64,000 nucleotides of DNA from Gammaproteobacteria bacterium (GTDB lineage Bacteria > Pseudomonadota > Gammaproteobacteria > Steroidobacterales > Foliamicaceae). Both the position numbers and the translations under genes were made by a program. The stretch spans positions 633,510 to 697,509 of the forward strand of contig CBDATM010000001.1 of assembly GCA_965200225.1 (NCBI GenBank), read 5' to 3'. How positions within the stretch are numbered: position 1 is the stretch's first letter; every line of letters begins with the position of its first letter. Below are positions 6,217 through 62,454 of this stretch, piece after piece. The notes beneath the pieces are model-generated. The model was not told the DNA's origin. It saw only the letters and a program-made list of their open reading frames with translations, and searched no databases.

Positions 6217-7588
6217 ATGCTATATTTCGAACTCTGTAAAGGGACTGAAAGGAGCCCCGATATGGACCTTCAATGCACCGCTTCCAACGCCTCCGTTTGC
6301 GATGCCCAGCGTCCGGTGCCTGGGCCGGATTCGGGCGAGTTTTCTTCAACTGTAGCTGGGGCTGTGGAGCCTGCCTCACTCCCCGTCGCTCTTCCCTCAC
6401 CTCCCGTCGCTCTTCCCTCACCTCCCGTCGCGCTTCCCTCACCGCCCAAAGCGCGGCAGGCCCGCCCGGGCAGCGAGGAGTGGATGGCCGAACGGACTCG
6501 CGAACAGACCGAGCTCGACAAGCTGGAAGCGAAGATCACCGAACTATGGGATCACATTAACGCCGCCACGGCGCAGTTCCTGGCACTGCTGGCAGAGTTC
6601 GACCGCAAGGAAGGCTGGGCTCAGCATGGCGTGGCCAGTTGTGCGCACTGGCTGAACTGGCAATGCGGTATCAGCTCGGGGGCGGCCCGGGAAAAGGTGC
6701 GAACGGCGCGGGCCTTGGAATCGCTGCCCAAGATCAGGGAAGCCTTCAGCGAAGGGCGTCTGTCGTATTCCAAGGTGCGGGCGGTAACCCGGGTGGCGAC
6801 AAAGGGGACGGAAGACTCTCTGTTGAACATTGCCTTGCATGGCACGGCGGCGCATGTGGAGCGTACGGTTCGGGGATTTCGCCGGGTGCAGCGCGAGTTG
6901 GAGCGCAACGAAGCACGGGAGTTGCACGAGCGGCGCTATCTGGACTGTCGCCGTGAAGCGGATGGCAGCGTGAAGTTGGAAGCTTGCTTGCCGACTGAGT
7001 TGGGGGAGATGTTGCTCAAGGCGCTGGAAGCGGCCCAGGCGGAACTGGATGAACGGGACCAACAGGACGAACGAGACGGACGGGGAAAACGTGACGAGCG
7101 CGATGAACGCGATGAACGAGGCGAATGCTATGGGGACGCGGAGCACGCTGGGACTTCCGCCGGGGCCTGCGCGGCGGATGCGGATTCGAATGCGGAGACT
7201 GCCGACGTTTCCGCGGAAACGTACGGGAAGCAATCGGCCCGCCCGCAACGCTGTGGAAAGGCAGGGTCAGGCGTTTCCGCGGAAACGTCTTTGCAAAGGC
7301 GGGGGCGAGAGAGAGAGGAAATGTAAAGGCGAAGGCGAAGGCGGGGGGGAGAGCGAGGGAAAAGAGAAATGGAAAAGCGAATACGAGGGCAAAGATAAAG
7401 ACAAAGGCAAAGTCGAGAGCGAGGTCGAAGACAGGATGCCTTCCCCCGGAGGAGAGGCGCTGGCGGCGTTCAACGCGGCGCGTAGGCTGGACATTGATGC
7501 CGGCACCGCACGTTGCGGCTGGGGCGGGGAGCGTATGGACTACGACATCGCGATTGATGGGCTGTGCTGGGAGGCGGGGTACCGATGA
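6217..7588 (+). pseudogene. Decayed DUF222 / HNH-endonuclease (13E12-repeat type) gene
   Basis: The 6217..7326 frame carries a clear DUF222 core (LALLAEFDRKEGWAQHGVASCAHWLNWQCGIS...LPKIREAFSEGRLSYSKVRAVTRVAT). No CxxC/HH HNH core follows. It is replaced by acidic and purine-rich low complexity. The usual C-terminal tail of this family (RLDIDAGTARCGWGGERMDYDIAIDGL) appears in another frame (7049..7588). Confidence 0.6.
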
Positions 7589-7756
7589 ACTGTTGGCAAC
7601 AGGGAACCGCCCCTGGTTTCGCGGAGGCTCCGTTGTTTGGGAGGATGGAGCGGGCTACTCGTCTGACGTTACTCTATTGCTGCGACAGGGCCGTTTGCGC
7701 GGGACCAACTTCGCCGCGCTATAGCGAAACCCTTCGCTGATAGAAGGCCATGTCAG

Positions 7757-8239
7757 TTGCATATTCATGTTTGTTCGTTGTCAAATGGAAAAACCATCAT
7801 TGAGGGTCTTTCCATGGGACGAGCGGTAACGGAAATTGTGCTGAGCGATGAAGAGCGGTTGGAACTTGAGCGTTGGCGCCGGCGGCGCAACGGTCGGGCC
7901 GGACTTTATGTGCGGGCCGGCATCGTGCTGGATTGCGCGGCGGGACTGTCCGGCAAAGAGATTGCCGAACGGCATCACACGAGCCAGCAGACCGTAAGCA
8001 AGTGGCGCCGCCGGTTTGCAGCCGGGCGGCTGGCTGGTCTGTCCGATGCTCCGCGAAGCGGCCAGCCCCGGCGCCACGGTGACGAGAAGGTGCAAGAAGT
8101 CCTGAACGCTACCCTGCACCGCCGTCCGAAGAACGCCACGCACTGGAGCGTGCGCGGCCTTTCCGAGGAACTGGGCGTGCCGCGGGATTTTGTTCACCGC
8201 GTGTGGCGGTCCTATGGCCTGAAGCCTCATTTGGCCTGA
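7757..8239 (+). mobile_element. IS630-family transposase, N-terminal HTH fragment only (DDE domain missing)
   Basis: MGRAVTEIVLSDEERLELERWRRRR...GLSGKEIAERHHTSQQTVSKWRRRFAAGRLAGLSDAPRSGQPRR...THWSVRGLSEELGV matches IS630 orfA-like HTH domains. The ORF stops after about 140 aa at a 15-bp tandem duplication. AT-rich DNA follows, not a DDE domain. Confidence 0.7.
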
Positions 8240-8503
8240 AGCCTCATCTGTGGCATATCTTAAAGGAATTAACCGGACAGTACACTAGGAACCATTGATT
8301 TATTTGAAAAATATATATATTTCTTCGAACTTTCTTTGAATTAAAGAAAGCCCCAAGGCTGCCCGTACGATGCGATAGCGCCCGGCTGGGGGTGAAGCTG
8401 CGGGAGCAGTCTCTTGTTGCCGGTTCGAGCAAAGTGTCTGGCAATACCGCCGGATGATATAGATATACCTACGATGCCGCGTTCAAGGTAAGGGGGGAAG
8501 CTG

Positions 8504-8878
8504 ATGTGTAGCAAATTATTGTATGTGGGGGTTGCCATCTTTACTCTTGTGTTCCTTGCGGGGTGTAGTAGTACTAGTTCCCCTTATGTCTATACCTTGA
8601 AATTTACACCAGATGGAGATTATGTAATTTCCGGGTCAGGTCGCGAGGCTCCAATTCGTCAAGCACTCGAGCATGTTTATAGCGTTTGCGGCGGCAAGGT
8701 ATTGGACAATGGAATGACAAACGTAGAGTTTGTTTCATATAGCATCGTGCCCGAACTGGGAGACGAAGGATGGCAATTCCGGAGGCTTGAGTGTAGTCCA
8801 GAGGCAGCCTCAAAACCGGGCAAAATGAGCTTTAGTATGCCAATGCAATCGCCACAGAATGTGTCAGCCGCCAGCTAA
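8504..8878 (+). CDS. Small lipoprotein of unknown function (low-G+C, probably acquired)
   Basis: 124-aa ORF with signal peptide and lipobox (VFLAGC/SS). Its G+C is visibly lower than the flanks. It follows an AT-rich 260-bp spacer. Confidence 0.55.
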   Translation: MCSKLLYVGVAIFTLVFLAGCSSTSSPYVYTLKFTPDGDYVISGSGREAPIRQALEHVYSVCGGKVLDNGMTNVEFVSYSIVPELGDEGWQFRRLECSPEAASKPGKMSFSMPMQSPQNVSAAS

Positions 8879-9047
8879 GGAGAGTCTGAGCAAGGCCCGA
8901 AATAGCGCTTGGGGAAGCCGTCTGCCGATTTTTTTGACGGCGGTGGCGACATGACGGCGGTGACGCGGTGGTGGCGCGGCTGCGGCCGGATTCGCCAGCG
9001 GATAGTATGGGGGCGGTATCGGCAGGAAATTTGGCGAGGGGAAAGGC

Positions 9048-9941
9048 ATGAAGCAGGTGGTTTGTGGGCTGCTTGGCGGGCCGGCGCTTAGGCTGGCGCT
9101 GGCGGTTGCGCTGGCGCTGGCGCTTGGGTTTGGGGGCGAGGCGAGGGCGCAGGACTGGAGTAAGGAGTACGAGACTACGAAGATTTCCGAGCGGCTTTAT
9201 ACGTTCTGGCGCAGGGGCATCCGCAACATCTTCGTGATTACGGATGAAGGGGTGATCGCGACCGATCCGATCAGTCCCGAAACCGCTGCCGTGTATCGGG
9301 CGGAAATCGCCAGGGTGACGGATCTGCCGGTGCGCTACGTGATCTACAGCCACGAGCACTGGGACCATGTGCTGGGAGGACAGATCTTCAAGGACGAGGG
9401 GGCGGAGTTCATCAGCCACGAGAATTGCCTGAAATTCTTCTTCCGCAATCCGAACCCGGACCTTGTGATCCCGGACCGCGCCGTCTCCGGGAATACACGT
9501 TTCAGCCTGGGCAGCGAGAGTTTCGGCCTCCGCTACCTCGGCGAGAACCACGGCGACTGCCTGCTGGTATTCGAGTTCCCCGAGGAGCGGGCGATCTACC
9601 TGGCGGACCTGGCGACCGACGGGTTCATCGGCCTGGGCACTATGCCGGACTACGACATCATCGAATACCTGCGTTCCTTGCGCGAGATCGAGGCCATGGA
9701 CTTCGATTTGATGATCGGCGCGCATGGGCCGGCGCGCGCGGGCAAGGACGCGGTGGTGATCCGGCGGCGCTGGATGGAAACGATCATTGATGCGGTGGGC
9801 CGGGAGCTTGACGCGGGCACGCCGGTTGCGGAGATCGCCGGCAAACTGCATTTTCCGGACTTCGAGCACCTGCGCGGCTACAAGTCGCAATTGCCGGCTT
9901 TCGTGCTGCGAATGGCGCAGTTCCACGAGATGGGCTGGTAG
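9048..9941 (+). CDS. Secreted MBL-fold metallo-hydrolase
   Basis: 297-aa ORF with a signal peptide, the metallo-beta-lactamase motif YSHEHWDH and downstream H/D ligands. Confidence 0.8.
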   Translation: MKQVVCGLLGGPALRLALAVALALALGFGGEARAQDWSKEYETTKISERLYTFWRRGIRNIFVITDEGVIATDPISPETAAVYRAEIARVTDLPVRYVIYSHEHWDHVLGGQIFKDEGAEFISHENCLKFFFRNPNPDLVIPDRAVSGNTRFSLGSESFGLRYLGENHGDCLLVFEFPEERAIYLADLATDGFIGLGTMPDYDIIEYLRSLREIEAMDFDLMIGAHGPARAGKDAVVIRRRWMETIIDAVGRELDAGTPVAEIAGKLHFPDFEHLRGYKSQLPAFVLRMAQFHEMGW

Positions 9942-10015
9942 CGGGCGGCGCGCGGGTACGGGCGCGGACACCGGCGCGGACGGATACCGGCGCGGACACT
10001 GGCTCGGAGCCCGGC

Positions 10016-29801: not shown

Positions 29802-32800
29802 TCAGCCCCCATCCAGGATGTCCTTCAGCGTCGTGTGCGACGGGTCCAATTCCACACCGTCGGCGAACTCCGGCGCGATGAACAGGGGGTTGCCGGGCGA
29901 CCAGAGTTCCACGCTTTCGGCGTGCTCCGCGTAGTACTCCGGGTCCGTCGTCACCCGCAGCGGCTTGGACATCCCCGGGGCCAGCAGGCTGTACTCCCGG
30001 CGGCCCATCGGCTGGACCTCGACACCAGGGGCCATGAGCGCGACCGATGCGACGATCCGGTCCAAGTCTTCCATGGTGACGGTCGGCTGCGGACGCGCCG
30101 TCACGGCGAGATCGCCCTCCGTCACGGCATCGATGTCGAATCCCGCATCCTGCCGCTTGCCCGCCTCCCGTTCGATGGAGTCGACGAGATTGGCGCGCCC
30201 GCGGGCGTCGCGGCCTTCGCCTTCAAGCACGCTTTGCGAAATCCTGCTGGGCAACCGGGCCAGAATGGGTTGCAGCGGTCCCACCACGGATTGGAACAGG
30301 CCGATGCGGTCCCGGAGGGCGCGGTAGATGTCGGTCTCCACCGTCCCCTCGTAGTGCAGGTTGACGATACGGATGTTCGTGTGCTTCTGACCCAGCCGGT
30401 CGATGCGCCCGATGCGCTGCTCCACCCGCATGGGATTCCATGGCATGTCGTAATTGACCAGCGCGCCGCAAAACTGGAAGTTCAGGCCCTCGGCCGCGGC
30501 GTCGGTGCACAGCAGGATTTCGGCTTCGCCGTCGCGGAACCGCCGCTTGGCGTCATCCCGGCCGATGCGCCGCCAAGCGCCATCGGCACCGGGCGCCTCG
30601 CCACCGCGCCCGGAGAAGCAGAGCAGTTTCCACTCGGCGTCCTTGAGTAGTTCACCGCGCAGGAAGTCCATGGTGTCGGTGTATTGGGTGAAGACCATCG
30701 CCTGGACGTAGTCCGTCCGGCGAAGCTCGTGCAGAACGTCCTTGAGGCTGTCGAGCTTGCTGTCCGGCGGCAGGCCGTCCATGGCCAAGAACAGGCGGTC
30801 GATATCCGCCTTCCGCTCGTTGGCGAGGGCTTCGCGTTCGAGGCGCGCCACCTCGTCCGCATCCACGATCTCGTCCTCCGCCTCGTCATCCGGCAGGTCG
30901 TCATCCGGGCTCGGCAACCGCGGCGTCCCGTCGGCGGCGATGGCGTCGCGCCGTTTCCGCAGGGTCTCCCGGAGCGCCATGAAACTGCTCGCGATCCGTC
31001 GGCGGTAGACCGTCATGACAAACCCCACGGCGGTGCGCTCCTTGCCGCTCGTCTGGCTGTAGGCGGTGGCGATGTAGTCCTCGACCGCCTCGTAGACCGC
31101 CCGCTCGTCCGCGGCCATCTCCAGGAAGCGGTCCTCGACTTGGCGCTTGGCGATCCGCGTCGTCATCATGCCTTTCTGGAAGTACCCCCGCAGCAGCTCG
31201 CGGGTGTTCCGCGACACCAACCGGCGCACCGGGGTGCCCGCCCGCATGATCTTGACCGCCGCCCGGCGTTCCGCGGTCTCCAGTTGACGGCGCGGAATAC
31301 TGGCCGCGTCGCGCAGCGCGCGCAGCACCTTTTTGGTCTTCAGGCGCGACAAACCCGTGAGCCGCTTCGCATCCGCCGCCCCGACGACGCCGTGCGCGCG
31401 TTCGACCGCTTGGAACAGCGACGCCATCCGTTCCATCGCCTCCGCCGAGGGGCTCGGCTGTTCGATGTCGCTGAAGAAATCGAGAAACTCGCGCTCGGTC
31501 CATTCGGGCGGCAGGCCAAGCAGGTCGAGCAGATCCCAGACCTCGATGGGATGCACCTGCATGGGCGTGGCGGTGAGCAGCACCAGCCCCTCGGCGCGTT
31601 CCTTCAGGCCGTGCATCAGTTTGAGCAGGGTGTTGGGGCCGCCCTCGCGCTGGCTACCCGCGCCGCGCCGCCGGGCGTGATGCGCCTCGTCGAGCACCAC
31701 CAAGTCCCAAGGTGCCGCCTGTTCCAGTAGCTCCGCCGCCCGGTCGCCGCGGCGCATCAACTGGCTTGACGCGATGACGGCGGGTTCGCGATGCCATTCC
31801 CCGCGTCCGGCAGCGCGCTCATGGCGGCCAAGCAACGCCGGCGCCGGGTACCATGTCAGCTTGTCGCGGTGGTAGATCGGCCAGTTGAGGTTGAACTTCT
31901 CCCGCAACTCGATCTGCCACTGGCCGAGCACAGCCTTGGGCGCGAGGATCAGGATGCGTTTGGCACGCCCGGCGAGCCATGCCTGCCTCAGCAGCATGCC
32001 CGCTTGGATGGTCTTGCCGAGCCCCACCTCGTCGGCGATCAGGAGCCTGGGCGGCCAGTTGTCGTAGAGGCGCTCGAACACCCTCTCCTGATGCGGCCAA
32101 GGATTGACGGCCGCGGTCGCCTCGCCGACCCGCTTGCCGCCGTGCGGACACGCCGGCGCCTCCCGGATGAACTTCCAGACCCGTGCCCGCAGGTCGCCCA
32201 CCGGCGACGGAGCGCGTGTCGATGCCGGCCGCGGCGCCCGCCCGGCATCGCCAGCGGGCCGCTTCGACGGTTTGTCGGTCGGCTTGCGCTCCAGACGGCC
32301 CGGCATGTTCGTTGCCGGCCTGAAGCGCATCAGGTCTCGGCGCGCCGCCTCCGGGATGTCCATCACGATCACGCGCTTCGCCTTCCCCGCCCAGATCCGT
32401 GCGAAGCTCGCCTCTTCCTGGTCAACCCGTCCGGGTTCGGGTCCCCAGCTCGTGTAGACGCCGATGCCCTCCCAGTTCTTCTGCCAGCCGGCGTTCGTCT
32501 CGTTCAGGCTTCCGGTCCATGCCAGCCGGTCGCCGACCCGATCCTCTACGATACCGGTCTTTTCATGGAAGATGGCGTTCTCCGTGATCGGCGCGCCGGC
32601 CGCGTCGCAGGGTACGGCGACCTTCACTTCCAGAAATCCGCGCGCAACCATCCATGCCAGCAATTCCAACGCGCCGACCGATGCCGAATCAGGCGGGTCG
32701 AGCGGCAAGCTCGCGAGACGCCGCTCGACAAGTTCGCGGAGTTCCTCGCCCCGTTCGATTGCCTCGATTTCCGGCGGCTCCAGGGTGCAGCCGACGACGA

Positions 32801-32990
32801 GCCTCATGCGGCCGTCGTTTCGCACCAGACCTTCAATACCGCGCGCCGCCAGCGCCAGGGCGCCGGCGTTGAAATAGCCCGTCAGGCGGTCGTAGCGCTC
32901 CGCTTCCTCAAGGGCAGGAATGTAGAACCGCTGGACGAGGTTGCCGCCCTCGACCGTGTACTTGAGTTGCCATTCGCGATCCCGAAGCAT
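29802..32990 (-). CDS. PLD(HKD)-nuclease domain fused to SNF2-family helicase (defence-island helicase)
   Basis: 1062 aa. The N-terminal HKD motif is IFHEKTGIVED. SNF2 motifs are LLIADEVGLGKTIQAG, VVLDEAHHARR and LLCTDAAAEGLNFQ...NYDMPWNPMRVEQRIGRIDRLGQ. The start lies 3 nt after the methyltransferase stop. Confidence 0.9.
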   Translation of the reverse strand: MLRDREWQLKYTVEGGNLVQRFYIPALEEAERYDRLTGYFNAGALALAARGIEGLVRNDGRMRLVVGCTLEPPEIEAIERGEELRELVERRLASLPLDPPDSASVGALELLAWMVARGFLEVKVAVPCDAAGAPITENAIFHEKTGIVEDRVGDRLAWTGSLNETNAGWQKNWEGIGVYTSWGPEPGRVDQEEASFARIWAGKAKRVIVMDIPEAARRDLMRFRPATNMPGRLERKPTDKPSKRPAGDAGRAPRPASTRAPSPVGDLRARVWKFIREAPACPHGGKRVGEATAAVNPWPHQERVFERLYDNWPPRLLIADEVGLGKTIQAGMLLRQAWLAGRAKRILILAPKAVLGQWQIELREKFNLNWPIYHRDKLTWYPAPALLGRHERAAGRGEWHREPAVIASSQLMRRGDRAAELLEQAAPWDLVVLDEAHHARRRGAGSQREGGPNTLLKLMHGLKERAEGLVLLTATPMQVHPIEVWDLLDLLGLPPEWTEREFLDFFSDIEQPSPSAEAMERMASLFQAVERAHGVVGAADAKRLTGLSRLKTKKVLRALRDAASIPRRQLETAERRAAVKIMRAGTPVRRLVSRNTRELLRGYFQKGMMTTRIAKRQVEDRFLEMAADERAVYEAVEDYIATAYSQTSGKERTAVGFVMTVYRRRIASSFMALRETLRKRRDAIAADGTPRLPSPDDDLPDDEAEDEIVDADEVARLEREALANERKADIDRLFLAMDGLPPDSKLDSLKDVLHELRRTDYVQAMVFTQYTDTMDFLRGELLKDAEWKLLCFSGRGGEAPGADGAWRRIGRDDAKRRFRDGEAEILLCTDAAAEGLNFQFCGALVNYDMPWNPMRVEQRIGRIDRLGQKHTNIRIVNLHYEGTVETDIYRALRDRIGLFQSVVGPLQPILARLPSRISQSVLEGEGRDARGRANLVDSIEREAGKRQDAGFDIDAVTEGDLAVTARPQPTVTMEDLDRIVASVALMAPGVEVQPMGRREYSLLAPGMSKPLRVTTDPEYYAEHAESVELWSPGNPLFIAPEFADGVELDPSHTTLKDILDGG

Positions 32991-32992
32991 TG

Positions 32993-35932
32993 TCAGTCGT
33001 GATCGTTGCGCCAGAGAGCGAGCTGTTCCGGCTCGTCAATCCGGTCGCGGTAGGCAAGGCAGCGGAGATTGTAGAGGACTTCAAAGTCGCTTCCCGATGC
33101 CGCCGCCTCGCCTTCGAGATCAATGCCCGTGAACGTCTTGGAAGGCGGCAGCACTTCCAGCACCGCTTCGAGCGCAGCGAAAAAGCGCGGTTCCCGATCA
33201 ACCTGTGCGTCAGCCAGCAGTTCGCGAGCCGCGGTCAGCGAGCGCAGCCGGGCCATGTTGGCGGCGTGATGGATGGCATCGATCATCCCGCGAGAGCCGT
33301 CGGGAGGTCCGAGCGCTCCCCTGGCCGCTCGGCGTTCGCTGCCCCACAGGGTGAAATCGCTTCCCTTCTTCGCGGCCAGGCGGCTGACAATATCGCGGTC
33401 GAGATTTGCCCCTACGGCGCGGGCGAGCCGCAGCGCCTCGTCGTAGGAAAACTTCGGTGCCCGAAAGGCATCCCAGGCAAGCACGAAGAAGGCGGTCGCA
33501 GGATCGAGATCAGCATCGGCCTTGAGATGCGTCAGCTTCTCCAGGCGCCAGCGCTTGACCTCGCGCCGCGCGGTGTCGAGCGCGTCCTCGGGCGTGGCCG
33601 CATAGGGGTCCCACTCGTCCTCGCGCTGCGCCGGCTGCCGACGCCTTCGGCGTTCCTCCGGCCTCTCCCGAGGCGTGCCGCGCTTGAGCGGCCAATGGCG
33701 CGAGAGCTCTTCGAGCGCCGGTCCGAAGGAGGCCAGATAGAGATCGACACCCGTGATCCCTGCCTCCTGAAACTCCCCGATCCGCGCGCGAACCGCCTTC
33801 GCCACCCGGGGTTCCACGTCCTCCCAGTAGACGACTTCACTGGAGTCGTCCCGGTCGCCGCGCGGGCGGCAGACCAGGAAGACCGTGCTGTTGGCCGCTG
33901 CCTTGTTGCGGATGTGCAGGCTGCCCTCGGCCTCGGTGTTCACCGGCCACGATGCGGTAATCGCGAAGCCCGCCTCCATCAGGCCCTTGGTGAGCGCGTC
34001 CCAGGCGCCGGTCGCCTTGTGGGTGAACATGAGCGTCATGATGCCGTCGGGCTTCAGCACCCGGCGGCACTCGGCGAAGATCGACGCCATGCGTTCCTGG
34101 TAGTCGCGGCCGGCGAGCGCCCTCGCGCCCTTCTCGCCCCGGAAACGCGCGGGATTGGCCACCGCCTCGTTGTGCTTGTCCGTCAGATGCCGTCGGAAGA
34201 GTTCGGGGAAGACATGGCCGGCGGTGCGCTTGAGCCAGACGTAGAAGAAGTCCGACAGCTCGGCGTACATGACGTTGTCGTAGTAAGGCGGGTCCATCAC
34301 CACGACATCGATGCTGGCGTCCTCGATGTGGTCGAGGCTGTCGCCCGGCTTGCACGAGATGGTGATCGAAGGCGCTGCGTACCCCGTCGCGCCCGCGCCG
34401 ACAAACAGGTCGTCGTTGTCACCCACTGCGCCGGGACGCACGAGCGCGACGAGCTCGTCGATGCACTTGGCGGTCTGGCCGATGGCCCAATCGTAGCCGA
34501 GCCCGACGATGAGCGGGGCCATTTCGGCGTAGGACCACTTGAACGCGAAGTCGTGACGGTCGAACTTGCCCGCAATGACTTCGCGTTTCGGTATCTATCG
34601 CGTCATTCGAACGTTGTAATTCAGCAGCTTGTCGAGCGAGAGCGCCAGATACCCATACGCCGCCTTGCGAACATCGCTCAGTTCGCCCCGCTGCCGGTCG
34701 GCTTCGAGCATCTCGCGGAAGACCTCGACGCCGGTGCCGTGACAGAGAAGCTGACGCGGCGAGAACAGGTCGCGCCAGAGCGGCATGCCGTACTGTATGG
34801 GCCGGTCGTCATTGCTGTCCGTGGGAAACCGTTCGCTCGGCACCATGTCGAGCGCCTCCCACTCGGGGAGCTTCTCTGCGAGCCGTGCGGCGATCTCGGC
34901 GCTGTTGTCGTCTTCGGGACGCGGCGCCCGATAGCCGCGCACCCACTTCGGCTTGCCGAGCTTGCCGGACTTGAGCACCCGGTCGTCGCGCCGCTTGTAG
35001 ACCACGGCATAGAGCTGCTCCCCCATCCCCCCGGCCTGCGCCTGCGCCTTGATCTCGTCGCCGTCGATCACCCGCCCGCAGTCCGGATACGGACACGTCC
35101 CATCCCCCCGCGCCACCGTCCCCGCCGACTGCTTCCGCACGTTCTCCACGATCTCGAAGGAACACATCCGCCCCTCCGACCCCGGTCCCGATGCAAGCTC
35201 CGGCTTCAGCTGCACCTCGGTTCCGCCAGGTGCGAGCCGCCAGTTCGGGGAGAGCGGCACTAGGCCCGCGCAGTAGGGGCAAGAGATGGTGCGCGCCCAG
35301 AGATAACCGTCTGGCCGGGAGTTTTCTTCGGCTTCCACCGGATAAACTCCCGCAAGGCGTTCGCGAATGATCGCCGTTAACTTGGCACCGATTTCGTCCA
35401 CGAGTGTCTTGACTTCATTTCCGTGCTTACTGGGCCATTCAAGCGTGGCATGCTCGATCAACGCGGCAACCGGGTTCAGGTCGTTCGCCAATGTTTCCAG
35501 CCCGAGACGGACACTCTCAAATGGCACACTGCCGCCACCCGCAGTAGGATCGAGGAGAGCAGTGCCCTTAGCTATGCGCTTCGCGAGCCAAGTTCTGTCA
35601 ACATTGTCTGGCGTGTATCCGAATGCCCGTGGATACCCGTATGCCGCTGCTCCCAGCCGCTTCCCTTTCCGGGTGGCGACAGCAATCCGCTTCTTCGCCT
35701 CGACCGGATCCCCGTGAATCCCCAGCACATGCAGAAACTTCTCGCGATCCGCATCCGCGGGAAGCAACGAGGCCAGAACGGCGGCCCGCGCCGCCACCAG
35801 CGGCCGCCGCGCCCACCAGACGTGCAGATAGTACGTGGGAGGCAACGCGGTCATGGAACGGCGCTCGCGAATGCTCTCTTCCCCCAGAGCCGCGATCGGC
35901 AGCCAGCGCTCGATCAGGCGAACGTCCGTCAT
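32993..35932 (-). pseudogene. DUF1156 (COG1743-type) Zn-ribbon DNA methyltransferase interrupted by a single in-frame TAG
   Basis: The N-terminal part (34595..35932) has the DUF1156 hallmark YYLHVWWARRPL, SAM motif LLDPTAGGGSVPFE and a Zn ribbon CPYC...CPYPDC. The C-terminal part (32993..34522) has motif IV VVMDPPYYDNVMYAELSDFFYVWLKR. Both ORFs are in the same frame (36013-34522 = 1491 = 3x497). They are separated only by TAG at 34595-34597, and the sequence between them reads on sensibly (IPKREVIAGKFDRHDFAFKWSYAEM). Confidence 0.85.
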
Positions 35933-36423
35933 GGCTGCCTCCATCCAGTGCGGAAATTCAGGTCGCGCAACATCTGGAACGTGTGGATGCACCTTATGCC
36001 GAAAGTTTTGCACACATCCGGCAGATGCCGGTTGGCCCGTTCACGCGCGGGCTTGGAAACCTCCGTGGTGACCACGGTAATTTCCTCCTTGGCGGCGAGC
36101 GCGTGGGCTACCAGGAACGGGTCGGCACCAACTTTCAAAAGCTCTTCCTCTCGGAGATCAGGAGCATAGCCTTCCGCCACAGCCCTTTGCACAACGCTTG
36201 GCTCCGATTCCCGGGGCCACCGGAGGACGGATTTGGCTTGCTTTACCCACTCCACAAGATCACCCCTTCCGCGGACGATTTCCTCGTATATTTCGATCGG
36301 CATCTTCGCCCGGCCTGATTCCGCCTGGTGCAGCAGCCAATCCCAAAACTCCGGCACTCGATCCAGCTGATAGTAGTCCCGGCCCGCATCGATCAGGACA
36401 TTGGCGTCGAGGAGATGGGTCAA
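35929..36423 (-). CDS. DUF4411 PIN-like nuclease
   Basis: 164 aa. (M)THLLDANVLIDAGRDYYQLDRVPEFWDWLL...IEIYEEI...DLVEWVKQ...DPFLVAHALA matches the DUF4411 pattern. A TTG start lies 6 nt after the ImmA-like stop, with AGGGA as RBS. Confidence 0.8.
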   Translation of the reverse strand: MTHLLDANVLIDAGRDYYQLDRVPEFWDWLLHQAESGRAKMPIEIYEEIVRGRGDLVEWVKQAKSVLRWPRESEPSVVQRAVAEGYAPDLREEELLKVGADPFLVAHALAAKEEITVVTTEVSKPARERANRHLPDVCKTFGIRCIHTFQMLRDLNFRTGWRQP

Positions 36424-36429
36424 GATCCC

Positions 36430-37584
36430 TTATCCCGCCAATACGGGCCCAACCTGCGTCGGCTTGACGCCGAGCACCACAGCGGCGCGTCTGGTGGGCA
36501 ATGAACGCTCCGCCAGAGAGCGGGCGACCAATTCGAGCATTGCTTTCCCCACGCGGTGACGCCTGACTGTGTAAAAAGCGGGCCCGCCTTTGGACTCCCG
36601 GTTCTTGAATCTCTGCCTCTGCCTTTGAGAGAGCCATGATCGCCTAAATCCCTCCGCCAGACGTCGGTATTCGGCTTGCCCGATGTGCCCGGCCCGCAAG
36701 AGCCTATAGGCGAACAGCGTCCTGCTGACATTCCATTCCTTGGCAATGTCGGCTATCTCCGCAGCAAGATCGTTCCGGGTTGCGCGAAACTCCCTAATGG
36801 GTTTTTTCGGGAGCAGGAACCTGCTGGCGACATCGTCGCAGAATCGCTCCACCTTCGAGTCCCCGGCGGTGGAGGAACAGGCGTTTCGGCCCAGCAGCAG
36901 ATGAACAAGTTCGTGTACGAGCGTGAAGCACCAAGCGGTCTTGGCGTCGTTGTTATTGATAACGATGAAGGGCGCCAGCGGATCCGACAGCGCGAGGCCG
37001 CGGAACGCGGTTGTGTCCAGCGCCGTATGATGGCTGCCGAGATCGCCTTTCAGAATGACGAAAACCTGCGCGCCCTCGGCGGCCTCCCGGAGCCCTTTGA
37101 AGAGGGCCTCCGCACCGAGATGCCTCATGGGCGCGACATCCCCAAGCAGTTGCCGCACCTTGGACAAGCCGCGGCGGACGCCTTGGTCCAAGGTTAGGGT
37201 GCCGATGAAGGGAACCCTCGGCGCGTCCTCGTCCGCCAGAATCTCGTGAACCAGGCTTTGGCTGGCTTGCATATCCCGCACCAGCATGTTGATCCGCGCT
37301 TGATCGGAGCGCGAACCGGAAAGAGAACGGAACTCAGAGTCGCGCAAGCTCGGTTTTGGCGGCCGCGCCAAGTAAAAGGCGATCAGCGGCTGTCGATAGA
37401 TGTCCACCATCCGCAACAACAACGGCTGCGTTGGCTCATGTTCGCCACTCTCAAGGTCGGTCAGGCGGTCAAGCGGCGTTTTCCCATGTGCTTCCTTAAT
37501 CCTCAGTTTGCGTGCGGCTTCGGCCTTGGACAGGCCAGCCCGGTTCCTGGCCCAAGACAGAATTTCGGGGTTCACGGCTGGCAT
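36430..37584 (-). CDS. Xre-type HTH fused to ImmA/IrrE (COG2856) zinc metallopeptidase
   Basis: 384 aa with an N-terminal HTH (ILSWARNRAGLSKAEAARKL) and a HEXXH site (FTLVHELVHLLLG). A strong AGGAGG RBS lies upstream. Confidence 0.85.
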   Translation of the reverse strand: MPAVNPEILSWARNRAGLSKAEAARKLRIKEAHGKTPLDRLTDLESGEHEPTQPLLLRMVDIYRQPLIAFYLARPPKPSLRDSEFRSLSGSRSDQARINMLVRDMQASQSLVHEILADEDAPRVPFIGTLTLDQGVRRGLSKVRQLLGDVAPMRHLGAEALFKGLREAAEGAQVFVILKGDLGSHHTALDTTAFRGLALSDPLAPFIVINNNDAKTAWCFTLVHELVHLLLGRNACSSTAGDSKVERFCDDVASRFLLPKKPIREFRATRNDLAAEIADIAKEWNVSRTLFAYRLLRAGHIGQAEYRRLAEGFRRSWLSQRQRQRFKNRESKGGPAFYTVRRHRVGKAMLELVARSLAERSLPTRRAAVVLGVKPTQVGPVLAG

Positions 37585-37659
37585 GTTGCCGCCTCCTGGG
37601 GGTAGTCGCCCGGAACCAGTGGCCGACCTTCGGCCAATCGGGCATCGCCCCTCAGCCGA

Positions 37660-38010
37660 TCAAGCGGCATAGTCAAGCAGCCGACCGGCGCTGCCGAAGG
37701 CTTCGACCGTCCACCCTTCGTTTGATCCCATCGAACGGCGCAGTCGAACCCGGCCCTCGCTGCCAGCTAGCCGTCGAACGCGCGCACCGCTCTCGCGCAG
37801 GGTCCTCTCCACCGCCTTGATTTCGTGCTTAAAGGGCCCGGGCTTTGTCTTGCTGGTGATCCAAGCGTGCGGAGTTGCTTGCAGTATGCGCTCAGCATCC
37901 TGTGCGGTTGGCAACTGGCCACGTCCCCGGCGCCAAGGTGCAAGCACCGCAACGGGTTCGGGTTGCAGCATCTGCTTCCACACTCCGTCGATCTCTGGTT
38001 GGATCCGCAT
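37660..38010 (-). CDS. Hypothetical protein (116 aa), no recognisable domain
   Basis: The ATG at 38010 is preceded by GGAG and lies 8 nt after the stop of the upstream ORF. It has the same strand and composition as the operon. The longer track ORF (to 38424) overlaps the upstream gene and is unlikely. Confidence 0.45.
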   Translation of the reverse strand: MRIQPEIDGVWKQMLQPEPVAVLAPWRRGRGQLPTAQDAERILQATPHAWITSKTKPGPFKHEIKAVERTLRESGARVRRLAGSEGRVRLRRSMGSNEGWTVEAFGSAGRLLDYAA

Positions 38011-38018
38011 ATGCTCCG

Positions 38019-38498
38019 CTACCGTTTCGGCTCCGTCAACAGGCACCGCAGCGCGGTCAGCACCCGGCGGGGATGCTTGCGGTGCATGGCCATGCCCAGC
38101 CAGTAGGCTGCCTCCTCGCGCCCCATCGCCTCGATTCCTTCCGCCACCGCGCGCATGTTTTCGCGGCTGCGCATCGGCGCCAGGGTGCGGAACAGGAGCC
38201 CCAGCGCCAGCGCGAGATCCTCCGTCAGGGCATGGCCCCGCCTCGTCGCATTGGCAGGCCGTCCGAGCCTGACGCCAGCCTGCGAGAGCTGTTTCAGCAC
38301 CTGATGCTCGACCAGCTCGAGGTTGCGTCCTCGCAGCCCGGCGACGCGTGCTGCACAAGTGACATGCGGTGAGGCGGGCGCCGGCAGTTGCCAGATCTCG
38401 TACTCGGCATCCGCCGACCCGCAAGGCCGAACCCGCAACTCGTAGCGCGGCGCGGACTCCGGCATCTCGACGCTGGCTATGCGTTCCAGCCGCGCCAT
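38019..38498 (-). CDS. Hypothetical protein (159 aa) translationally abutted to the DUF499 ATPase
   Basis: The junction is TAA-ATG with zero spacing to the DUF499 stop (38499-38501). The sequence is helical and Arg-rich (…GREEAAYWLGMAMHRKHPRRVLTALRCLL). It could correspond to the small accessory protein family often found with DUF499/DUF1156 genes (DUF3780-like?), but I cannot confirm this. Confidence 0.55.
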   Translation of the reverse strand: MARLERIASVEMPESAPRYELRVRPCGSADAEYEIWQLPAPASPHVTCAARVAGLRGRNLELVEHQVLKQLSQAGVRLGRPANATRRGHALTEDLALALGLLFRTLAPMRSRENMRAVAEGIEAMGREEAAYWLGMAMHRKHPRRVLTALRCLLTEPKR

Positions 38499-41400
38499 TT
38501 ACGCTTTGGCTTCGGCTTTCGCCAAAACATGGGCGGCGCCGCTCGCGAACCGGCTGAGTTGCTCGGCCTGTTTCTCCGCAGCGTCCCCTTTCATCGGCAG
38601 GCCTTCCTTGAAGGTCAGCTCGAACCCGACCTCGAGGTCTGTCGAGCTGGCATCGCGAAGCTGTGGTTCCAGGAATTCGCGGACCGGTTGCGCATCGCTC
38701 ACCGGACCCCGGAACTCCAGTTCGAAGGTTCCGCCGTCGCGCGTCTCGTAGCCACCTTTCACGGTCACGATCACGACCGCGCCGGACACGGCGCCGACTG
38801 CACCGAGGAGCCGGAATGCGTGGCCGGCCTCGAACAGGCGGATGGTTAGCGATGCGATGGCTTCCACCTTCTTTGCCCGAGCCTGTTCCCAGAGCTGCAC
38901 GAGCGCTTCCCGGAGAATCCCCTCGGCTGCAAACGAGCCGGGTTCAGACCTGGTCACGTGCGGCGCACCTGGAGGAGAGCTGTATCCAGGGACTGCCGGT
39001 TCACTCACCTCGCCGTGCCCGGGAGCGGTTGATCGCGTTTCCGGCGGCTCGGCGGGCCTCCGTGGCCAGATGCCCTTACGCATCGCATAGTCCATCGTGA
39101 AGATCATCGACTGCTCGTCGATCTCGATGTCCGCCGCCGGGTCGTCCGGACCGAACAACAGGTCTCCGCGCCGGTATATGTACTCGCCTTGTTCAATGCC
39201 TTGCCGGACGCCGCGAACGAAGATGTCGTCGCCCACCAAAATGGGCAGTGCTGGATCGCGCCGAAATTCGTTCCTGAGCGACAGGGACGTGATGCTGCCT
39301 TTTTTGAGTGGCGTTCGGTCGCGCACATAGGCAGGCGAGTCCGGCTGATCCTCCGACAGCCGGAGCTTGTTCAGGTCGCGCAGTGCCCGCACGACCTGCT
39401 GTTGCCCGGCTCCTGGCTTGTCTGAGGCGGAGTGCGTGTCGATGGCGGTGTGCGCCAGATCGATGTCGCTTGCGTCAATGCGATTGCGCGATGGATAAAA
39501 CAGGTGCCGGTAGCACTGCTGGATGGCGAGGGCGAGCTCCTGCTCGGAGCGCTGCTCCATCTCGCGCACGCTGGCCTGTTGATGCTCCGCCAGCTCGACG
39601 AGACGCTCCGGCTTCTTCATTACCCGCAATGCCAGCCGACGATAAACCTTGCGGCGCATGTCCTCCTTGCGCGCCTCCTCGGCGGCTACGAAGACCAGAT
39701 GGTTTCGGAGCACGCGCAGCGCCGAGCCTTCCGATCCCTTCCGCTCGAAGATGCTTTCGATCAATTCCGGCACGGCTTCAACGGATGTCCCGATGGTTAC
39801 GGCCTCGAATCCGAGAACGACCAGCTTCGGCCGTCCGTCCGCAATGTCGTCGGCCACGTCGAACGGGCCGCCGGGAAACGGCACCGCGTCGAACGTCCTG
39901 CCGTCGAATATCTCGCGGATACGGCCGTTCAGCTCCGCGCGCGCTTCCCCGGCATCGACATGGTCTTCCGTGCGCCGGATGATCCGGGTCAGATTGGCTT
40001 CGGCCAGAAAGCGCATCGGTGCACCGGGCCGGTCGTCGAGATAGGCGGACTCGGCGATGAACTTCTTGCGCGCCTCTTCCACAAAGCTGATGTCCGTCGC
40101 GGGACCCAGCACCGAATAGCGCAGCCGCTCTGGCGAGATACCTTTCAAGGAATCGTTGAAGGCGAGCGTGTGCATGAAGATCGTGCGGGCGACATAGGCG
40201 GCATAGGGCGGCAGGCCCCCGTGATGCGCGGTGTCGATCTCCTGGGCCAACGCCGCCTTGCTTCCGGGTCCGGCGGACACATCGTTGGAAATGGCCGGCG
40301 TAAACGCCGACTGCTCCAGGCGCGTCACGATTTCTTGCCGGATTGGCTCGTGTCCCGGGTCCATGTGGTGCAGGTGGATTGCCATGGCGTCGGCCGGCCG
40401 TTCCCGCCACAGATGCGCCACCGTGCGCGCCAAGAGCCGCAACATGCCCCGCACCCGCTGGAAATTGCCGAGTGTGGCGGTCTTGGATGTCAGCGTCTCC
40501 AGCACTTCCGGGTGTAGGGGATAGCTCGACCGGAAAGCTTCGACGGCCTCGGGCCGGGTGGCGGTTTCGGGCAAAGCATCGCCGTGGGTCGTCCATTTTG
40601 TCCCGTAGGCTGCCGCCGCGTCATTCGCCGCCTTGTCGTCGATGGATTCGAACAGGCGGCGCCGAAGAACCTGGACCGTTTCATCCTCTTCGGTCGGGTT
40701 GAGCAGCGTGGCCTTGCGCGCCGACACACTCTCGGCTTCCCCCATGCCGTCGGCGAGGAACTGGTTTTCGTTTTTGTAGGCGTTGGTGGCCCGACCGTCC
40801 TTGCCTACGGCTAGCGTGTAGACGAGTGCCGCGTTGTCGGTGCCCTCCACGGCCTTGAACAGAGAGGTCAGAAACGCCGTCAGTTGATCGCCGCCGTTGC
40901 CGAGTCTGTTTGCCTTGCGCAGATAGATAGACAGCTCGTCGAGCAGAATGAGTGCCGGTTCGCCGCCGAACAGTTCCCGCATAGTCCCGGCGCCCGGAGC
41001 GACCCCGGCCTCGTCGCTCTTGCGTATTCGTTCGTAGCCGTCTTTGCCGCCGAGCGCGGAGGCGATCTCGCCCCAGGGAGTGAATGCGAGATGCCCTCCG
41101 TCCATCCGGCGGCCGTTTGCCGGGTCCGCGTTCTCGCCATCGAAGGCCGCGATGCGAACGCGGCCCCTCGGCAGCAGAGCGGGCTTCACAAACTCCTCGA
41201 TCCTCGGCACATTAGCGCCGCTCCGAGCGGCGTGGCACAGGGCGATCAGGCCGTGCGATTTGCCTCCGCCATAGGAGGTGTCGAGGCGGAATATCGACGC
41301 GACTTCGCCGCCCGCGCCGCTCAATCGGCGACAGACATGTGTCAGCAGGTTCTTGAGGCCCCTCGTCGGATAGGTGTTGTCGAAGAAACGGACCGGATCG

Positions 41401-41528
41401 GCATAGTCGTCGCTTCCCTTACCCACAATCACCTGCGCCAAATCCGCCGCGAACTCGGCCTCCGCCAACGCGCCTGTCAAGACATCCCCACGCGGGCGGC
41501 AAGAATCGAATATCGTCGGGACCGTCAT
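38499..41528 (-). CDS. DUF499 (COG1483-type) P-loop ATPase, BrxC/PglY-like
   Basis: 1009 aa. Walker A-like FRLDTSYGGGKSHGLIAL and Walker B ALILLDELSIY, with a long helical C-terminal region typical of DUF499 proteins. Confidence 0.85.
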   Translation of the reverse strand: MTVPTIFDSCRPRGDVLTGALAEAEFAADLAQVIVGKGSDDYADPVRFFDNTYPTRGLKNLLTHVCRRLSGAGGEVASIFRLDTSYGGGKSHGLIALCHAARSGANVPRIEEFVKPALLPRGRVRIAAFDGENADPANGRRMDGGHLAFTPWGEIASALGGKDGYERIRKSDEAGVAPGAGTMRELFGGEPALILLDELSIYLRKANRLGNGGDQLTAFLTSLFKAVEGTDNAALVYTLAVGKDGRATNAYKNENQFLADGMGEAESVSARKATLLNPTEEDETVQVLRRRLFESIDDKAANDAAAAYGTKWTTHGDALPETATRPEAVEAFRSSYPLHPEVLETLTSKTATLGNFQRVRGMLRLLARTVAHLWRERPADAMAIHLHHMDPGHEPIRQEIVTRLEQSAFTPAISNDVSAGPGSKAALAQEIDTAHHGGLPPYAAYVARTIFMHTLAFNDSLKGISPERLRYSVLGPATDISFVEEARKKFIAESAYLDDRPGAPMRFLAEANLTRIIRRTEDHVDAGEARAELNGRIREIFDGRTFDAVPFPGGPFDVADDIADGRPKLVVLGFEAVTIGTSVEAVPELIESIFERKGSEGSALRVLRNHLVFVAAEEARKEDMRRKVYRRLALRVMKKPERLVELAEHQQASVREMEQRSEQELALAIQQCYRHLFYPSRNRIDASDIDLAHTAIDTHSASDKPGAGQQQVVRALRDLNKLRLSEDQPDSPAYVRDRTPLKKGSITSLSLRNEFRRDPALPILVGDDIFVRGVRQGIEQGEYIYRRGDLLFGPDDPAADIEIDEQSMIFTMDYAMRKGIWPRRPAEPPETRSTAPGHGEVSEPAVPGYSSPPGAPHVTRSEPGSFAAEGILREALVQLWEQARAKKVEAIASLTIRLFEAGHAFRLLGAVGAVSGAVVIVTVKGGYETRDGGTFELEFRGPVSDAQPVREFLEPQLRDASSTDLEVGFELTFKEGLPMKGDAAEKQAEQLSRFASGAAHVLAKAEAKA

Positions 41529-62379: not shown

Positions 62380-62454
62380 TGGCTGGGGCGGCAGGATTCG
62401 AACCTGCGAATCACGGGATCAAAACCCGTTGCCTTACCGCTTGGCTACGCCCCA
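62380..62454 (-). tRNA. tRNA-Gln (anticodon UUG)
   Basis: The reverse complement is tggggcgtagccaagcggtaaggcaacgggttttgatcccgtgattcgcaggttcgaatcctgccgccccagcca. It folds as a cloverleaf (anticodon stem acggg/cccgt, loop ttTTGat, T-arm gcagg-ttcgaat-cctgc, encoded CCA). It is almost identical in D-arm and T-arm to E. coli tRNA-Gln as I remember it. Confidence 0.9.

Follow-up and report, generated by a model that had tools for sequence, protein, structure and literature searches.

We analyzed a stretch of 64,000 nucleotides from a Gammaproteobacteria bacterium of the family Foliamicaceae (contig CBDATM010000001.1, positions 633,510 to 697,509; hereafter the window), and focus on two adjacent genes on its minus strand. 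The first encodes a helix-turn-helix (HTH) protein with a Peptidase_M78 (ImmA/IrrE-type) zinc-metallopeptidase domain (384 aa, ATG start, 36430..37584) and the second a DUF4411 PIN-like protein (164 aa, TTG start, 35929..36423). We interpret the pair as a self-contained, mobile toxin-antitoxin (TA) cassette of the Xre-COG2856(ImmA)/DUF4411 type, resembling RosmerTA, which is carried as cargo in the hypervariable slot between the DUF7680 and DUF1156 genes of an Hma-like, BREX-related (BR) defense operon. We assign this reading a probability of roughly 0.7. The HTH-metallopeptidase would be the antitoxin and autoregulator of the cassette, with DUF4411 as the candidate toxin, an RNase; by analogy to known systems, a TA or defense function for the pair is plausible.

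Profile searches uphold the COG2856 and DUF4411 assignments made in an original prediction from the nucleotide sequence. The 384-aa protein matches Pfam Peptidase_M78 (PF06114) across residues 189-295 (E 5.7e-14, 52.4 bits vs a cut-off of 22). Its zinc motif HELVH (H224, E225, H228) and a downstream E246 are all invariant in eight relatives, and its HTH_31/HTH_3 matches, at residues 11-64, are weak and lie under the Pfam cut-offs. Thirteen PADLOC models of RmrA, the RosmerTA antitoxin, match the protein (best PDLC03949, E 3.3e-20), some of them spanning residues 4-310, and so do PADLOC capP (E 3.7e-11) and phrog_2439, a phage family labeled "transcriptional regulator" (E 8e-41). A GAF domain was not detected in it. 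The cassette has no separate repressor gene; the HTH is fused to the peptidase in one chain. At the protein's C-terminus (residues ~355-384; window 36430-36540) the motif AAxVLGVKPTQV is invariant among relatives, and its sequence looks like a second helix-turn-helix.

The 164-aa protein matches DUF4411 (PF14367) from profile position 2 to 158 of 159 (E 1.4e-38, 132.6 bits vs a cut-off of 23.5); searched against the protein collection, it has 2,516 homologs with E no higher than 1e-5. Three acidic residues (D101, E121, D136) are invariant in a 64-sequence DUF4411 alignment, and four more (D6, D12, E44, E48) are at least 90% conserved. With the alignment of 64 homologs as input, AlphaFold2 gave a confident model (predicted local distance difference test score, pLDDT, 92.7; predicted template modeling score, pTM, 0.88). 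Its top Foldseek matches in the PDB are all PIN domains (7og5, 8kda, 1v8o, 6a7v, 3h87, 5ecd), including the HARP protein-only RNase P 7og5 (E 6.9e-4, template modeling score 0.55-0.57), VapC11 6a7v and PAE2754 1v8o. According to this model DUF4411 has a PIN-like alpha/beta fold with conserved acidic candidate active-site residues, in agreement with the fold that had been proposed for it.

Homologs of both gene products have been solved together, since both match molecules of a single entry, PDB 9vzy, in which an HTH cro/C1-type domain-containing protein (393 aa) is accompanied by a DUF4411 family protein (162 aa). Residues 5-379 of the 384-aa protein align to its chain A (E 4.4e-19), and a profile of 64 DUF4411 homologs matches the 'DUF4411 family protein' chains of PDB 9vzy/9vzz (E 8.6e-8 for 9vzy). 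The deposited proteins are distant homologs of those in the window. With three antitoxin-type and six DUF4411 chains in 9vzy, a stoichiometry of one antitoxin per DUF4411 dimer would fit. Our literature search did not find a paper on 9vzy/9vzz.

The two genes are found together almost without regard to their surroundings. An alignment-based scan anchored on DUF4411, with one genome per species, returned 405 relatives; we fetched the best 80, of which 78 had upstream sequence. In each of the 78 assessable loci (from the best 80 of 405) DUF4411 is immediately preceded by an ImmA-like gene, where the original prediction had expected frequent pairing, and within this sample the ImmA/DUF4411 pairing is essentially obligate. 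The pair lies within a DUF499-DUF7680-...-DUF1156-helicase operon at eight of the 78 loci (L100, L101, L104, L119, L125, L137, L143, L152) and is BR-associated at five more: it follows the helicase gene in L111, sits beside distant DUF1156/DUF499 homologs in L124, L128 and L154, and is intact in L105 (5324-7480), where the upstream DUF499 gene survives only as a 74-aa fragment. The survey suggested alongside the original prediction, of pairs inside DUF499/DUF1156 loci compared with elsewhere, thus gives 10-17% of the nearest 78 pairs in or beside BR loci and ~83-90% elsewhere.

Close relatives of the window's pair are distributed differently. Approximately 10 of the 15 pairs with an ImmA at least 48% identical to the window's are BR-embedded or BR-associated, and among the nearest protein relatives whose contigs could be used, the embedded ones are, by DUF4411 identity, L011 (85%), L012 (65%), L093 (60%) and L098 (58%). 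At a similar distance, the pair of L095 (60%) is intact (7550-9717) between a DUF7680 fragment and a 39-aa stub, while those of L096, L097 and L099 lie outside BR operons, in L096 between cdsA and rseP. In rough neighbor-joining trees nearly all embedded pairs fall into a single clade, within which three free-standing pairs are also nested, and the ImmA and DUF4411 trees are broadly congruent. A divergent M78 and DUF4411 pair (L021, 25% ImmA identity, Pfam-confirmed) occupies the same slot, and consequently the pair appears to have entered the slot at least twice independently. Decay is seen in opposite directions: in L095 and L105 the pair is intact and the BR genes are fragmentary, and in L032 the BR operon is intact and the pair has decayed.

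Outside BR operons the neighborhood is heterogeneous. The 118 open reading frames (ORFs) flanking free-standing pairs match 147 Pfam families, none of them found in more than three ORFs, and only a minority are defense genes (type IIG restriction-modification enzymes, ABC ATPases, integrases). Relatives of the pair are also present in 47 plasmid records, most of them rhizobial megaplasmids with the annotations "XRE family transcriptional regulator" and "DUF4411 family protein", and in two phage records. Judged by sequence, the scattered distribution is typical of a mobile TA module, one clade of which has a real affinity for BR operons. The same distribution could be produced by a purely selfish addiction module, whose loss kills the cell and which stabilizes the surrounding DNA while taking no part in phage defense. 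Such a module would be expected at miscellaneous sites like the cdsA-rseP site and the plasmid records that make up the ~83-90% outside BR operons, among neighbors as varied as those listed above; it would also survive intact where BR genes are reduced to fragments, as in L095 and L105, or beside a nonsense-mutated methyltransferase gene, as in the window. 

We quantified the contents of the slot with a second scan, anchored on the methyltransferase, which returned 275 relatives; the best 80 were fetched (63-79% identity, many phyla; L013-L092), and slot statistics were taken from the 59 with a complete, co-oriented DUF7680 gene upstream of the methyltransferase gene. The distance between these two genes is 21-316 bp in 11 loci, where the slot is empty, ~0.5 kb in four and 1.26-9.0 kb in 44. 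Recurrent modules in the slot, recognized by clustering the slot ORFs, are always co-oriented with the operon. They include PtuA+PtuB (Septu; ~10 loci), a three-gene module with NsnB/NsnC (Menshen; ~7 loci), and an unnamed three-gene module encoding proteins of ~235, ~200 and ~371 aa, the last with a metallo-beta-lactamase fold, in ~14 of the 59 slots. This unnamed cassette has weak PADLOC matches only (LmuA, RTasMBL), and we regard it as a candidate uncharacterized defense module. Other cargo comprises TIR/ThsB-like proteins and AAA-ATPase_like+PDDEXK_9 proteins. ImmA-DUF4411 occupies the slot in L043, L064, L086 and, as the divergent lineage, L021, and beyond the 59 loci also in L011, L012, L093, L098, L100, L101, L104, L119 and L137. 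Decayed copies of the pair are found in L032, where ImmA has an internal deletion and DUF4411 is gone (8800-10010), and in L031, which retains a 46-aa ImmA fragment.

The slots also contain pieces of the genes that border them. The 5′ end of the methyltransferase gene is repeated in L011:2176-2346 (a 57-aa N-terminus between DUF4411 and PtuA) and in L016:7580-7821, and the 3′ end of the DUF7680 gene in L019:7371-7586 and L025:6391-6538. Judging by their sequence, these core-gene fragments were probably left behind when cassettes were exchanged through recombination inside the core genes. The ImmA-DUF4411 cassette would have arrived by the same recombination-driven cargo turnover that brings Septu, Menshen, TIR and other modules.

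This company speaks against a module that is only selfish. All other recurrent occupants of the slot are recognized or candidate defense modules, and at least two distinct lineages of the pair, that of L021 and the rest, have landed in it. RosmerTA, which has the same antitoxin type, defends against phages (10.1101/2022.05.11.491447; PMC10440598), and the loss in L032 of DUF4411 and part of ImmA is an in-place decay that is unexpected for a strongly addictive module. We therefore consider a purely selfish role unlikely, and continue with the TA cassette carried as defense cargo.

The stop codon of the ImmA-type gene (36430-36432) is followed after 6 nt by the DUF4411 TTG at 36423, a start codon that we judge correct as the homolog consensus opens M-x-Y-L-L-D. 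The DUF4411 TGA (35931-35929) overlaps the methyltransferase ATG (35932-35930) as ATGA. Upstream of the pair, a 75-nt minus-strand spacer (37585..37659) contains the hairpin GGCCGA-AGG-TCGGCC (37635-37621) and an AGGAGG ribosome binding site (37597-37592) 7 nt ahead of the ImmA-type ATG. It is the largest intergenic gap in the operon, whose remaining gaps are 0-8 nt, and we take it as the boundary between a cassette remnant and the TA cassette. All of these features agree with what had been read from the sequence originally: two proteins of 384 aa, with HTH and HELVH, and 164 aa, separated by 6 nt; a DUF4411 stop abutting the methyltransferase start; and a strong ribosome binding site, spacer and hairpin ahead of the pair, in the only real gap inside the operon. 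The arrangement is thus confirmed, and chance would not plausibly produce it. The pair had also been described as wedged between the ATPase and the methyltransferase, which holds on the methyltransferase side only; its upstream neighbors are the DUF7680 gene and a 116-aa ORF, not the ATPase gene.

The 116-aa ORF (37660..38010, minus strand) aligns at 60% identity with residues 263-371 of L019:8878-9993 (BLASTP, E 8e-41), a 371-aa protein that matches Pfam Lactamase_B and is the last gene product of the recurrent three-gene cassette. By sequence, the ORF is the 3′ remnant of a different slot cassette, from its metallo-beta-lactamase-fold gene. G+C content at third codon positions is 0.66-0.73 in this remnant, the ImmA-type gene and the DUF4411 gene vs 0.77-0.85 in the core genes. 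The end of the remnant and the first few bases of the spacer are common to the window and L032. The interpretation of the spacer as a module boundary is thereby supported, both by the lower value in the pair and by related operons that carry other cargo or nothing at this position; on sequence comparison, the boundary belongs to a generic cargo slot. When we looked for a transposon-like insertion, the flanks of the cassette showed neither direct nor inverted repeats.

We rejected the spacer and its hairpin as a conserved regulatory element. Sequences upstream of 14 related ImmA genes resemble one another only in close pairs, and neither spacer nor hairpin contains a sigma-70 promoter or terminator pattern. 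A comparison of the spacer with Rfam gave nothing above noise (P15, 20 bits vs a gathering score of 70).

The arrangement suggests that the pair shares a transcript with the operon and that its translation is coupled to that of the methyltransferase gene, both of which form part of our best explanation. The gap between pair and methyltransferase gene is 0-25 nt in the window and in L012, L093, L098, L100, L101, L104, L137 and L143. Such proximity would also be expected if the HTH-peptidase were mainly a damage-responsive regulator of the methyltransferase and helicase genes, a fused CapH+CapP or ImmR+ImmA, and DUF4411 an accessory BR effector. Most embedded pairs do lie directly upstream of the methyltransferase gene, and the capP match described above points in the same direction. 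However, the protease accompanies DUF4411 in 78 of 78 loci whatever gene follows, most of these contexts have no BR gene, and unrelated cassettes fill the same position. The two proteins were deposited together in one PDB entry, and the DNA upstream of embedded copies is not conserved. We consider this regulatory role highly improbable, and retain the view that peptidase and nuclease form one TA-type unit.

The host operon runs, all on the minus strand, in the order DUF499, DUF7680, 116-aa ORF, spacer, HTH-M78, DUF4411, DUF1156 methyltransferase and PLD/SNF2 helicase. Its core genes encode an HmaC-like DUF499 ATPase (38499..41528; Pfam DUF499 E 1.6e-33, PADLOC HmaC E 5.6e-98); DUF7680, at the upstream border of the slot (38019..38498; Pfam PF24728 E 7.3e-44); an HmaB-like DUF1156 N6-adenine methyltransferase, at the downstream border (32993..35932; Pfam DUF1156 and N6_N4_Mtase, PADLOC HmaB ~1e-33 for each half); and a probable PLD(HKD)-SNF2 helicase, the effector of the host system (29802..32990; Pfam SNF2-rel_dom, Helicase_C and PLDc_2; PADLOC PLD_Helicase E 3.1e-67, HmaA E 4e-54). 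For the HKD/PLD nuclease that Type-2 BR helicases carry at the N-terminus (PMC12839542), the PLDc_2 match is weak (E 1.1e-4, 22.5 bits, under the cut-off of 27), and the matches to PADLOC PLD_Helicase and NCBIfam phospholipD_antiphage are strong yet under curated cut-offs. Scores against the NCBIfam anti-phage equivalogs for DUF499, DUF1156 and PLD lie far under the cut-offs (207.7 vs 1200, 139.8 vs 1000 and 356.4 vs 1100 bits, respectively). From these profile matches, we classify the operon as an Hma-type, DUF499-centered BR system that is "Type-2 BR"-like.

The small core gene encodes DUF7680, and DUF3780 gave no match even when E values up to 1 were allowed. The DUF7680 gene begins with an ATG immediately after the DUF499 stop, and the same succession of DUF499 and DUF7680 recurs in ~60 related loci. 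DUF7680 is not mentioned in the literature that we searched. The DUF7680-bearing operon possibly represents a BR/Hma subtype that has yet to be described and has a wide distribution, the 275 methyltransferase relatives coming from species-representative genomes. A 254-aa ORF (37660..38424) was rejected as a high-G+C artefact; its N-terminal part reads DUF7680 off-frame, and the real genes are 38019..38498 and 37660..38010. The flanks of the locus are ordinary, with genes for an OPT transporter, Dtd and TatC at one end and for an acyl-CoA dehydrogenase and a TonB receptor at the opposite end, and neither an integrase nor a tRNA gene adjoins the operon; the nearest tRNAs begin at 62380.

Relatives of the methyltransferase (63-79% identity) occur in Alpha- and Gammaproteobacteria, Acidobacteriota, Latescibacterota, Binatia, Spirochaetia, Gemmatimonadota and other metagenome-assembled genomes, a spread over many phyla that points to extensive horizontal transfer of the operon. 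Several of these records bear sponge-associated names. Many relatives (for example L023, L043, L047, L067 and L084) have a second variable gap of 1-5 kb, from the end of the methyltransferase gene to the start of the helicase gene, which is empty (0 nt) in the window. In L048:11377-12870 the methyltransferase frame is broken by ~1.5 kb of unrelated sequence, which may be an insertion element or another cassette.

The methyltransferase gene of the window contains an in-frame TAG (34595-34597) at codon 446, a position occupied by Trp in 82 of 85 aligned homologs. A single TGG-to-TAG change accounts for it, splitting the protein into parts of 445 and ~530 aa. Unless the TAG reflects an assembly error, it has probably disabled the host BR system. 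In our search for a near-identical relative with which to date the stop and the cassette junction, P0002 is a relative 93% identical; a metagenome scan with the same aim gave only relatives of 47-59% identity. The original prediction had missed this nonsense codon, as well as DUF7680 and the cassette remnant. It had presented the pair as a protease-gated nuclease acting either as a second, abortive-infection layer or as an addiction module; a real nonsense codon would imply that the pair acts alone, as a stand-alone abortive-infection or addiction module, and not as a second layer.

A disabled host system, a slot that contains the remnant of another cassette, and the decay of the pair in the related loci L031 and L032 would all be compatible with a cassette that is itself an inactive relic without present function. 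Yet both ORFs are full length vs all relatives, every catalytic and invariant residue is kept, and the ribosome binding site and translational coupling are intact. Decay to a relic is, of the explanations weighed here, one we hold to be very improbable, and an intact TA cassette remains our interpretation. A more elaborate function can be formulated for the clade enriched at BR loci, whose members would be dedicated guards: on sensing that a phage has inhibited the BR methyltransferase/helicase complex, or that the complex has been lost, they would set the PIN nuclease free. The conserved position and the translational coupling to the methyltransferase gene would form part of such a guard's wiring. 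There are precedents for guarding, as PARIS senses Ocr next to BREX and PrrC guards EcoprrI; we regard a dedicated guard as a speculative and distinctly unlikely proposal.

The module type itself is known. HTH-DUF955 genes upstream of DUF4411.1 were predicted to be TA systems by Matelska et al. (2017, PMC5499597). Their modules have the same domain pair in the same order, with a fused HTH-M78 gene immediately before a DUF4411 gene of a single domain, and conserved acidic residues in DUF4411, with no architectural difference from the window's pair; theirs is a prediction without experimental test, and the DUF499/DUF1156 context is not described there. RosmerTA comprises a Zn-peptidase antitoxin and a variable toxin, and a construct with the antitoxin deleted was not transformable (Millman et al. 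2022, 10.1101/2022.05.11.491447). The likeness to RosmerTA lies in the two-gene organization, the antitoxin with M78 Zn-peptidase and HTH, and the matches to RmrA models; the difference is that validated RmrT toxins have unknown function or depolarize the membrane, and are not PIN nucleases. In the NetFlax analysis, the ImmA antitoxin node pairs with PIN-like toxins (PMC10440598). As in VapBC, the candidate toxin has a PIN-like fold and conserved acidic candidate active-site residues, but the window's antitoxin is a 384-aa HTH-metallopeptidase instead of a short ribbon-helix-helix (RHH), AbrB or Phd protein, and DUF4411 is distant from PF01850. ImmA/ImmR, IrrE(PprI)/DdrO and CapP/CapH share the M78 HEXXH peptidase family and act by signal-dependent cleavage of an HTH protein; in the window, unlike in these systems, a single protein combines HTH and peptidase, and its conserved partner is not a repressor but a nuclease.

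Embedding in BR loci is also established. Inserted genes (Septu, PARIS, Ppl and others) are reported in approximately 66.5% of hma systems, and the region has been called a defense-gene hotspot (PMC11232893); "auxiliary and backup" effectors have been described within BREX/BR loci, with PIN endoRNases as a less common RNase class (PMC12839542). Published Hma, BR and BREX loci resemble the window in having unrelated defense cassettes, such as Septu and PARIS, co-oriented between core genes. The Halomonas hotspot, however, is found in nuclease-C-terminal (Type-1-like) Hma, mainly between hmaA and hmaBC, whereas in the window the slot belongs to a PLD-helicase system and is bordered by DUF7680 and the methyltransferase gene. 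Type-2 BR is defined by DUF3780, a standalone gene in 98% of taxa (PMC12839542), in place of which the window's operon has DUF7680. The text and searched supplements of PMC12839542 do not mention DUF4411, M78, ImmA or DUF7680, and the searchable text of PMC11232893 and PMC12839542 does not name ImmA-DUF4411; our literature search on COG2856+PIN defense found no dedicated paper. The claim that the pair is undescribed in its embedded context was consequently overstated in view of PMC11232893, PMC12839542 and PMC5499597. Module type and embedding in Hma/BR loci are already known, the latter from the hotspot and the backup effectors, and only the specific combination of ImmA-DUF4411 with a DUF499/DUF1156 operon was not found named in searchable texts.

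By analogy to these systems, the cassette would operate as follows. DUF4411 would be a Mg-dependent, PIN-like RNase that arrests growth, and the 384-aa HTH-metallopeptidase would bind and neutralize it as a protein complex, while expression of the pair is probably autoregulated through the N-terminal HTH. A cue arising from phage or damage would then free the nuclease and abort the infection, either by activating the peptidase for self-processing or by shifting the antitoxin's conformation. Single-stranded DNA activates IrrE(PprI) and CapP, which then cleave their HTH partner (PMC10904395, PMC13228613); as these are related M78 peptidases, and the protease motif is invariant in the window's protein and its relatives, a phage or damage cue is plausible as the trigger.

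Several considerations weigh against this interpretation. Toxicity, neutralization, the trigger and what the peptidase site does are each transferred from the biochemistry of RosmerTA and CapP/IrrE and from PDB 9vzy, and the literature that we searched yielded no functional data on any DUF4411 protein. DUF4411 matches no PADLOC model, and no RmrT, even at E 10; lacking an RmrT model that matches it, current tools would not call the pair RosmerTA. Pairs outside BR operons lie mostly beside housekeeping or miscellaneous genes, which fits a selfish TA element equally well. Finally, the methyltransferase gene is nonsense-mutated, and the notion of a second layer behind a working first one may not apply in this genome.

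With this finding, the backup modules already published from within BREX-related operons gain a RosmerTA-like PIN toxin-antitoxin pair, one that current defense finders would miss, as PADLOC has no toxin model for DUF4411. The pair offers a compact natural setting for testing whether proteolysis triggers an HTH-metallopeptidase antitoxin. More interesting by-products are the footprints of cassette turnover and the unnamed metallo-beta-lactamase cassette; the slot is a clean example of intra-operon cassette turnover with recombination footprints, and can be mined for new defense modules. The intact pair beside a nonsense-mutated methyltransferase gene bears on whether such cassettes outlive their host systems or stabilize them.

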